Both the position numbers and the translations under genes were made by a program. A stretch of DNA of 64,000 nucleotides, taken from Escherichia coli (lineage in GTDB: Bacteria > Pseudomonadota > Gammaproteobacteria > Enterobacterales > Enterobacteriaceae). This document shows, in pieces, positions 47,468-49,141 of this stretch (the first letter of the stretch is position 1; each line of letters opens with the position of its first letter). Under the pieces are notes generated by a model. It worked only from the letters and a program-made list of their open reading frames with translations. It was not told where the DNA came from and made no database searches. The stretch lies in assembly GCF_048403405.1 (NCBI RefSeq), contig NZ_CP183129.1; one strand, written 5' to 3'.

Positions 47468-49141
47468 ATGAATATAAAGACGATTAACGTCAGCCTTTTG
47501 TCTTTTTCTATTATTACAGCATTGTTTCCGTTGAACGCGTTGGCAACAAAATTAACCATTGAGCAGCGCCTTGAACTGCTTGAAAATGAATTGTCGCAAA
47601 ATAAACAAGAGCTGAGAGCAACACAGAATGAACTGGGGGTATATAAATCCCGACTTTCGACCTTACAAAAAAGTATTACGGAAAATAAATACAAATCAGC
47701 CTCACTTGCTGAAATATCAGCGACATCTCCCGTCGCTGATAACATCAAAAATGAAAACGGTGAACAGAACTCGTCTGCCGCAGCGCATACTATAAATGGA
47801 TCGCAGCAAGTTGCCGTTATTGAAAGTAAAGGCGACAAAACCACTATCGAAAGCGTGACCCTGAAAGATATCAGTAAATATATAAAGGATGATATTGGGT
47901 TCAGCTATCAGGGGTACTTCCGCTCAGGCTGGGGTACCGGAAATCATGGCTCACCACAAACATATGCAGCGGGTTCTCTGGGACGTTTTGGTAACGAGAT
48001 GAGCGGTTGGTTTGACTTAACCTTAAATCAGCGTGTTTATAATCAGGACGGTAAAACGGCAAATGCGGTCGTTACCTATGATGGCAACGTAGGTGAGCAG
48101 TATAACGATGCCTGGTTTGGTGACAGTGCCAATGAAAATATCATGCAGTTCAGTGATATTTATCTGACAACGCGAGGTTTTTTACCCTTCGCGCCAGAGG
48201 CAGACTTCTGGGTAGGCAAACATAAACTCCCGCAATATGAGATCCAAATGCTGGACTGGAAAACCTTAACCACGGATGTCGCTGCGGGTGTGGGGATTGA
48301 AAACTGGGCACTTGGTGTAGGGCTGTTTGATATGTCCTTAAGCCGTGATGATGTCGATGTTTACTCTCGTGATTTTACGCGTACCAGTCAGATGAATACC
48401 AATTCTGTGGATGTTCGTTATCGCAATATCCCGTTATGGGATGATGCAACATTATCATTAATGGCTAAATATTCCGCACCAAATAAAACGGATCAACAAC
48501 AAGATAATGAAAATGACGACAGTTATTTTGAAATGAAAGATAGCTGGATGCTGACTTCTGTTTTACGGCAAAACCTGCAACGCGATACGTTTAATGAATT
48601 TACGTTACAGGTTGCCAATAATTCCTATGCCAGCAGTTTTGCCAGTTTCTCAGATGCCAGTAACACGATGGCGCATGGTCGCTATTACTATGGTGACCAT
48701 ACCAATGGGATCGCCTGGCGTTTAATCTCTCAGGGCGAGATGTATCTTACTGACAATATTATTATGGCTAACGCGCTTGTCTATTCTCATGGCGAAGATG
48801 TTTATAGTTATGAAAGTGGCGCTCATAGTGATTTTGACAGTATTCGCACCGTAGTAAGACCGGCCTGGATCTGGAATACATGGAATCAGACGGGGCTTGA
48901 ATTAGGCTGGTTTAAGCAACAGAACAAAACACAGCAGGGTGTAACACTAAATGAATCGGCTTATAAAACGACACTCTGGCATGCATTGAAAGTGGGTGAA
49001 AGCATTTTAGGTTCACGACCAGAAATTCGCTTCTATGGAACGTATATCAATATTCTGGATAACGAATTATCGAATTTTAAGTTTAATGAGAACAGCAAAG
49101 ACGAGTTTATGGCCGGCATCCAGGCGGAAGTCTGGTGGTAA
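47468..49141 (+). CDS. sugar-specific porin (LamB/ScrY/BglH family) with N-terminal coiled-coil extension
   Basis: 557 aa; signal peptide; predicted coiled coil at residues ~30-75; aromatic-rich barrel ending ...AEVWW. Confidence 0.75.

Follow-up and report, generated by a model that had tools for sequence, protein, structure and literature searches.

What kind of channel is a LamB-like sugar porin that carries a long coiled coil ahead of its barrel, and what might the coil do in the periplasm? We have addressed these questions here for a single gene of Escherichia coli, located at 47468–49141 on the plus strand of a 64,000-nucleotide stretch of contig NZ_CP183129.1 (assembly GCF_048403405.1), the whole of which we refer to as the window. 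We consider it likely that the gene, a paralogue of BglH, supplies the bgc beta-glucoside operon with its outer-membrane channel, and we favor a role of the N-terminal coil in stabilizing or positioning the porin trimer. As a sugar channel of the E. coli outer membrane the product is ordinary and has been described before; the gene is routinely annotated, and earlier descriptions cover the LamB-family barrel, the N-terminal coil of ScrY type (for which Pfam has a separate family), the paralogy with BglH, and the bgc operon.

The open reading frame begins with ATG, has an AAGGA Shine-Dalgarno sequence 8–9 nucleotides 5' of it, and contains 557 codons plus a stop, giving a product of 557 residues. 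RefSeq labels the identical sequence, found in several complete E. coli genomes, as 'carbohydrate porin' (WP_001022717.1), and the open reading frame list together with the Pfam families LamB and Sugarporin_N likewise identify a BgcH-type carbohydrate porin. A rule-based reading of the sequence predicts a signal peptide at residues 1–26 (47468–47545, plus strand, as are all segments of the gene), which starts with MNIK, continues through a hydrophobic core, and ends with NALA ahead of the TK of the mature protein; alanine is present at both -3 and -1, and every orthologue, like BglH, retains the -1 alanine position. The mature protein then comprises a coiled-coil segment (residues 28–73, 47549–47686), a polar linker that is predicted to be disordered (residues 74–127, 47687–47848), a conserved motif immediately preceding the barrel (residues 128–146, 47849–47905), and an 18-strand sugar-porin beta-barrel (residues 147–557, 47906–49138) with the C-terminal end AEVWW.

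In the barrel, residues 147–557 match the full Pfam LamB model (PF02264, positions 1–378) with an E-value of 8.9e-82 and 276.5 bits relative to a gathering score of 25.1, and the same model is matched by 49/49 aligned relatives. An AlphaFold2 model of the monomer, computed from a 49-sequence alignment and with a mean predicted local distance difference test score (pLDDT) of 81.5, places 18 strands between residues 146 and 556, mostly with pLDDT above 90. Foldseek comparison of the model with the PDB gives maltoporin as the best match (1mpr and 1mal, E about 1e-24, template modelling (TM) score 0.75–0.79), followed by ScrY (1oh2 and 1a0t, E 1e-16, TM about 0.80), with general porins far behind. 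A family profile searched against the PDB finds LamB at 4e-112 and ScrY at 3e-43, and BLASTP also finds both proteins (E 3e-23 and 2e-13, respectively). A single-sequence phmmer search of PDB sequences returned nothing at E ≤ 1 and a local phmmer search also missed LamB and ScrY, but because BLASTP and the family profile both find them, these misses are an effect of sensitivity or of the bias filter and not of absent homology. We also considered and rejected identification of the protein as maltoporin itself; it scores 204.6 bits against an NCBIfam cut-off of 394 bits and 118.7 bits against one of 765 bits (NF006860 and NF009061), and we do not file it as a maltoporin because both scores lie under the cut-offs.

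For the coil, Pfam Sugarporin_N (PF11471) matches residues 30–56 over model positions 1–27 of 31, with 29.2 bits and a gathering score of 25.7, and this family is also matched in 14 of the 49 relatives. We wrote a heptad-register score and compared it with the best window of 300 shuffled sequences; the protein scores 0.89, which is 7 standard deviations above the shuffled maximum of 0.49 +/- 0.056, and 0/300 shuffles reach 0.89. A single unbroken register runs from residue 28 to about residue 80, with K28, L35, L42, L49, L56, L63, and I70 in the a positions and I31, L38, N45, T52, Y59, L66, and N73 in the d positions, and the heptad pattern is maintained across genera. AlphaFold2 models residues 31–73 as a single helix (pLDDT 74–83). 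The segment from 28 to 73 corresponds to about 6.5 heptads, and would be about 68 Å long if fully helical. An earlier note, made from the letters of the window, had proposed a LamB/ScrY-like barrel preceded by a coiled coil at residues ~30–75, and had named coiled-coil prediction and barrel modelling as the analyses that might refute this; both are positive, and the combination of coil and barrel is confirmed, well beyond chance.

The same note went further in calling the linker Ser/Asn-rich, and here the composition does not bear it out, as serine plus asparagine make up 24% of the linker and 16% of the rest of the mature protein, a difference that is not significant (Fisher p = 0.18). Alanine is the only residue that is even nominally enriched. 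Hydrophobic residues account for 19% of residues 74–127 versus 33% elsewhere, and the segment is disordered in the AlphaFold2 model (pLDDT about 30), so that it is better called polar, Ser/Ala-rich, and poorly hydrophobic. Two islands within it are kept across genera, SPVA-NI-NENGE (residues 86–98, 47723–47761) and QQVAVI (residues 112–118, 47801–47821), and AlphaFold2 places a low-confidence beta-hairpin at residues 115–130. Conservation within the extension is highest in the motif at residues 128–146, with 78–100% identity in orthologues and 68% in BglH, and the model contains a short amphipathic helix at residues 132–138, at low confidence (pLDDT below 50 for residues 128–140). The motif is present in six relatives (P0126, P0129, P0130, P0132, P0133, and P0134), one of which, P0134, has lost the long coil and retained the motif; it is missing from LamB, and only a faint echo of it is seen in ScrY.

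Orthologues with 75–83% identity, all of exactly 557 residues, are present in Citrobacter, Salmonella (mainly subsp. salamae), Enterobacter, and Kluyvera. Identity within the orthologues varies along the protein, from 59–65% in the coil and 38–57% in the linker to 78–100% in the pre-barrel motif and 82–90% in the barrel. Coding differences between the window and the B2 strain Nissle 1917 are synonymous and non-synonymous in ratios of 8:2 in the coil and 26:6 in the barrel, and three E. coli alleles likewise differ mostly by synonymous changes; the extension is therefore under purifying selection that is looser than that on the barrel. Beyond the orthologues, only 269 clusters were retrieved at E ≤ 0.001 when 1.8 billion cluster representatives were searched exhaustively. 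Most of those at about 40–57% identity have an N-terminal extension whose heptad helix varies in length, and in the more distant LamB-like clusters the barrel begins directly after the signal peptide.

The nearest characterized relative is E. coli K-12 BglH (YieC), encoded by the cryptic bgl operon, which is 53% identical over residues 20–557, compared with 24% for LamB and 23% for ScrY. According to PMC2646131, which cites Andersen et al. 1999, BglH acts as an aryl-beta-glucoside porin. The two proteins have the same order of signal peptide, coil, polar linker, MTLKDFSKFVKDEIGFSY motif, and barrel, and share the coil sequence LT(V/I)EQRLELLE and the pre-barrel sequence TLKD(I/F)SK(Y/F)(I/V)KD(D/E)IGFSY, together with a subfamily-specific lysine at the position of LamB Y118; both are encoded in operons with phosphotransferase system (PTS) genes and a GH1 enzyme for beta-glucosides. 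They differ in that the bgl operon has a Glc/Bgl-type IIBCA protein and the BglG antiterminator, whereas the operon described here has separate Lac/Cel-type IIB, IIC, and IIA proteins and a GntR-type regulator. Moreover, the BglH coil is about two heptads shorter, with the heptad-score span extending over residues 21–58 compared to 24–82 in the window porin, and the linker sequences are unrelated (3% identity). We rejected the possibility that the window gene is the bglH orthologue, given the 53% identity, its location in an island between eamA and marB rather than in bglGFBH next to phoU, and its other operon partners. The protein is a paralogue of BglH.

Comparison with ScrY, the sucrose porin of pUR400-type scr regulons (PDB 1A0S, 1A0T, and 1OH2), reveals a more distant likeness. 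ScrY also has an 18-strand barrel and an N-terminal periplasmic heptad extension of the same family (PF11471), it is PTS-linked, and the residues that narrow the LamB channel are replaced at its constriction. However, the extension of full-length ScrY (scr plasmid) is ~70 residues long and joins strand 1 directly, lacking a long disordered linker, whereas in the window porin ~120 residues precede the barrel and a predicted-disordered linker of ~54 residues lies between coil and barrel. Coil, long linker, and pre-barrel motif together constitute a BglH-subfamily variant of the ScrY-type architecture. The earlier note had regarded the extension as a feature of ScrY-type porins and had pointed to ScrY and BglH for comparison; the coil family and the overall coil-bearing architecture are indeed those of ScrY, but the long linker is a trait of the BglH subfamily, and it is BglH and not ScrY that is the nearest relative. 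LamB (PDB 1MAL, 1AF6, and 1MPR) shares the fold, the family, and, as judged from the alignment, aromatic character at four of the six greasy-slide positions and the core polar-track residues, but has no N-terminal extension and serves the mal ATP-binding cassette (ABC) transporter with its periplasmic binding protein. DcaP of Acinetobacter baumannii also has an N-terminal periplasmic coiled coil, described as stabilizing the trimer (PMC6173795), but its barrel belongs to another family that is not among the sequence or fold matches, and the likeness is architectural only.

To describe the lining of the channel we used an alignment of 51 sequences to transfer the functional residues of LamB, known from the structures of LamB and ScrY, a mapping made in sequence rather than in three dimensions. 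As a control, the ScrY residues N192, D201, and F204 were recovered at the positions of LamB R109, Y118, and D121. Of the six greasy-slide positions, four carry an aromatic residue, with Y150, W181, F375, and W556 corresponding to LamB Y6, Y41, F227, and W420; of the others, LamB W358 is replaced by L514, and W74 by D214, with W216 two residues away. The polar-track residues R152, R173, D183, E258, and D263 are kept, and R152, R173, and D263 are the equivalents of LamB R8, R33, and D116. At the constriction, the window porin has Q256, K265, and T268 where ScrY has N192, D201, and F204. The lysine at position 265 (codon 48260–48262), equivalent to LamB Y118, is invariant in 22/22 BglH-like sequences, and ScrY has aspartate there. 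K265 thus appears to be a subfamily signature of the pore constriction, and the channel is best regarded as a sugar-porin type with a putative subfamily-specific constriction of its own.

The genetic context is consistent with a role in beta-glucoside uptake. The porin gene is the fourth of five co-directional genes on the plus strand, preceded by genes for PTS lactose/cellobiose-family components IIB (45326–45637), IIC (45751–47073), and IIA (47095/47101–47412), all three assigned by Pfam, NCBIfam, and RefSeq. It is followed by the last gene of the operon, which encodes a BgcA-type GH1 6-phospho-beta-glucosidase (49166–50605, with the RefSeq start); this matches Pfam Glyco_hydro_1 and scores 1034.6 bits with NCBIfam NF007154, for which the cut-off is 624. 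A BgcR-type regulator of the GntR/UTRA family is encoded divergently at 44429–45127 on the minus strand (Pfam GntR and UTRA, and RefSeq). In gene content and order the locus matches the description of the bgc operon (bgcR and bgcEFIHA) in PMC3585215, which names four of the five genes. According to PMC3585215, which cites Neelakanta, Sankar & Schnetz 2009, bgc contains five genes including those for IIB, IIC, IIA, and a phospho-beta-glucosidase, is activated by BgcR, and permits use of cellobiose, arbutin, and salicin when the temperature is low.

Domain anatomy, fold, homology, operon context, distribution, and purifying selection were all computed directly, and from them and the parallels with known porins we infer the substrate, the trimeric state, the parallel arrangement of the coil, and the role of the coil. 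In the model that we propose, the signal peptide would be cleaved and the protein would assemble as a trimer of 18-strand LamB-type barrels in the outer membrane, through which cellobiose and the aryl-beta-glucosides arbutin and salicin would reach the periplasm by diffusing along the aromatic 'greasy slide'. Import and phosphorylation of the sugars would then fall to the co-encoded PTS of the lactose/cellobiose family (IIB, IIC, and IIA), and the GH1 6-phospho-beta-glucosidase would cleave the phosphorylated product, with the operon presumably under control of the divergent GntR-type regulator. By analogy with ScrY, the three 28–73 segments of the trimer would most likely associate in the periplasm as a parallel three-stranded coiled coil, tethered to the barrels through the ~54-residue flexible linker and the short conserved helix. 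We favor stabilizing or positioning of the trimer as the main role of this coil, with a low-affinity extension of the sugar path as a possible secondary role. This too draws on analogy, in that the trimers of ScrY and DcaP are described as being stabilized by periplasmic trimeric coiled coils, and a direct role of such coils in translocation is called unclear (PMC6173795).

Several considerations weigh against this interpretation. The proposed substrates, beta-glucosides, are taken from operon context only, and the constriction is no help here, since in the alignment LamB Y118, R109, and W358 are replaced by K265, Q256, and L514, and LamB is therefore no guide to specificity. The AlphaFold2 model is of a monomer, so that the trimer and the parallel coil are inferred. 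The fifth gene of bgc would be the porin gene, bgcH, and the equation of bgc with the present locus is made from gene content. The whole island that carries the operon is absent from K-12, and the system is therefore non-essential, and the porin gene is split by insertion sequences (IS), IS1 or IS3, in a few strains (H10, H11, and H36). Lastly, two relatives, P0141 and P0159, are encoded next to PTS and GH1 genes and have no coil.

The last of these points bears on a quite different role for the coil, which is that it takes part in moving the sugar across the periplasm. The tethered coil would pass through or past the peptidoglycan and, acting as a docking arm or 'extended sugar slide', feed beta-glucosides to the PTS IIC permease, in effect replacing the periplasmic binding protein of the system that LamB partners. 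The paper by Dumas et al. is in line with this in both its title and its thesis, and also notes the suggestion that such coils guide substrates to an inner-membrane component. It also fits the genetic context of seven coil-bearing porins (ScrY, BglH, BgcH, P0126, P0129, P0130, and P0131) whose genes adjoin those of PTS permeases, three of them (P0126, P0129, and P0131) in PTS plus GH1 operons, and the absence of a coil from LamB, which operates in the mal ABC system. The conserved linker islands SPVA-NI-NENGE and QQVAVI could likewise suggest more than a passive spacer. However, our survey covers only 11 related loci, about a dozen in all, and within this small sample the association breaks down in both directions, with a PTS and no coil at P0141 and P0159, and a coil with no neighboring transporter gene at P0132 and P0138. 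We therefore rejected the idea that the coil is tied to PTS uptake as a rule. The coil also has no recognizable sugar-binding motif, and the reservation over direct translocation noted above applies equally here. As the coil is neither necessary nor sufficient for a PTS partnership it is an optional accessory, and an optional coil favors a stabilizing or positioning role over an obligatory relay; delivery of sugar to the permease by the coil is thus an unlikely explanation, in our view.

One of the surveyed loci is of interest for a different reason. The gene for P0130, a coil-bearing porin with 45% identity (L010 7001–11313, GCA_017569925.1), lies after genes for a BglG-type antiterminator and PTS EIIB and EIICA components, and is followed by a gene for a GH106-family (rhamnosidase-type) glycosidase instead of a GH1 enzyme. 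Because of this substitution, we suggest that the BglH-like subfamily serves other glycosides too.

A further set of considerations concerns the part of the extension closest to the barrel. It could be supposed that the extension, and especially its pre-barrel helix, folds onto the periplasmic mouth of the barrel and tunes conductance or selectivity, without a structural role in the periplasm. The conservation of the pre-barrel motif, which exceeds that of all other parts of the extension, and its retention in the coil-less P0134 fit well with this. ScrY without its 70 N-terminal residues was reportedly more LamB-like in the 1995 work of Schuelein et al., and we count this on the same side. 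Nonetheless, with AlphaFold2 confidence below 50 for residues 128–140 any contact of the helix with the pore is putative, and a long heptad repeat would be unnecessary for such a role, so we regard modulation of the channel as a distinctly doubtful substitute for stabilizing or positioning of the trimer.

The two parts of the extension could also have separate tasks. The 'split' extension of BglH and BgcH would then be functionally unlike that of ScrY, with a distal trimeric coil held about 50–60 residues off the barrel on a flexible tether that bears the two conserved islands, and a proximal conserved helix where the barrel opens into the periplasm. Such a coil might span the peptidoglycan layer and bind the PTS permease or a different partner in the envelope, so that passage across the outer membrane would be physically coupled to phosphorylative uptake at the inner one. 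We raise this arrangement as a speculation to which we give little credence.

The operon and its regulator occupy an accessory island of 6.3 kb (44385–50661, no strand assigned), which contains the whole six-gene cassette and was delimited by base composition and comparison with K-12. Its GC content is 42–43% versus about 50% in the flanks, and it is situated between eamA and marB, which in K-12 are 30 bp apart. Of 5426 complete E. coli genomes, 2553 (47%) carry a copy of the porin gene with 96.5–100% identity, almost always intact at 1674 nucleotides; the island is also present in Nissle 1917, with 96.7% identity. The same six-gene cassette is found in Citrobacter (L009) at an unrelated chromosomal site, and thus travels as one unit. 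H-NS silences the paralogous bgl operon, whose bglH-yieJI segment is a frequent target of IS insertion (PMC2646131), of which the IS1 and IS3 insertions in the porin gene of a few strains are an echo. It would be very improbable that the porin gene rides along, silent or decaying, in an island gained by horizontal transfer, with an N-terminal extension that is an inherited relic without present function, as the AT-rich composition, the absence of the island from about half of E. coli genomes (K-12 included), the occasional IS insertions, and the silencing of bgl might suggest, given that the frame is intact at a constant 1674 nucleotides in about 2500 genomes and 557 residues in four other genera, that substitutions in both coil and barrel are mainly synonymous, and that the heptad pattern is kept across genera.

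Expression of the porin relative to the PTS components may be set in part at the RNA level. A stable predicted RNA hairpin on the plus strand, identified by its folding energy, lies past the stop codon of the IIA gene and ahead of the start codon of the porin gene, with an 11-bp stem formed by UUUCCUCCAGU and GCUGGAGGAAA (47416–47443, with outer pairing to 47410–47449), a free energy of -20.3 kcal/mol, and a z-score of -2.6. The Citrobacter counterpart preserves the stem by a single compensatory G-C to A-T change, and its loop has diverged. A terminator search of the IIA-porin interval found no terminator-like site, and because the hairpin has no T-run, it is more likely an element of mRNA stability or processing than a terminator. 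It is probably such an element, or a weak attenuator, that sets the ratio of PTS to porin expression.

Elsewhere, the window is not uniform in origin. Strain TUM14771 is not colinear with positions 1–32801, and matches the remainder at 99.97–99.99%. Positions 8000–28000 (52–58% GC) contain the structural module of a lambdoid prophage, from terminase to the tail-tip protein J, that is 96–98% identical to Escherichia phages PhiR47_1 and Tritos, and the junction to the chromosome backbone is near ydfJ, at about 32.8 kb.

For annotation, the consequence is that the gene should be assigned to the bgc beta-glucoside operon as its porin, with BglH as a paralogue, and should not be labelled a maltoporin. 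As an accessory trait the bgc island is common, and it is reported to be prevalent in septicemic and uropathogenic strains, and with the island in 47% of genomes, the porin would be a frequent surface protein of the species and a possible target for phages or colicins. The wider question, which is not specific to this gene, is what periplasmic coiled coils on sugar porins do, and the layout shared by BglH and BgcH offers a natural variant with which the 'extended slide' and 'trimer clamp' ideas may be compared.

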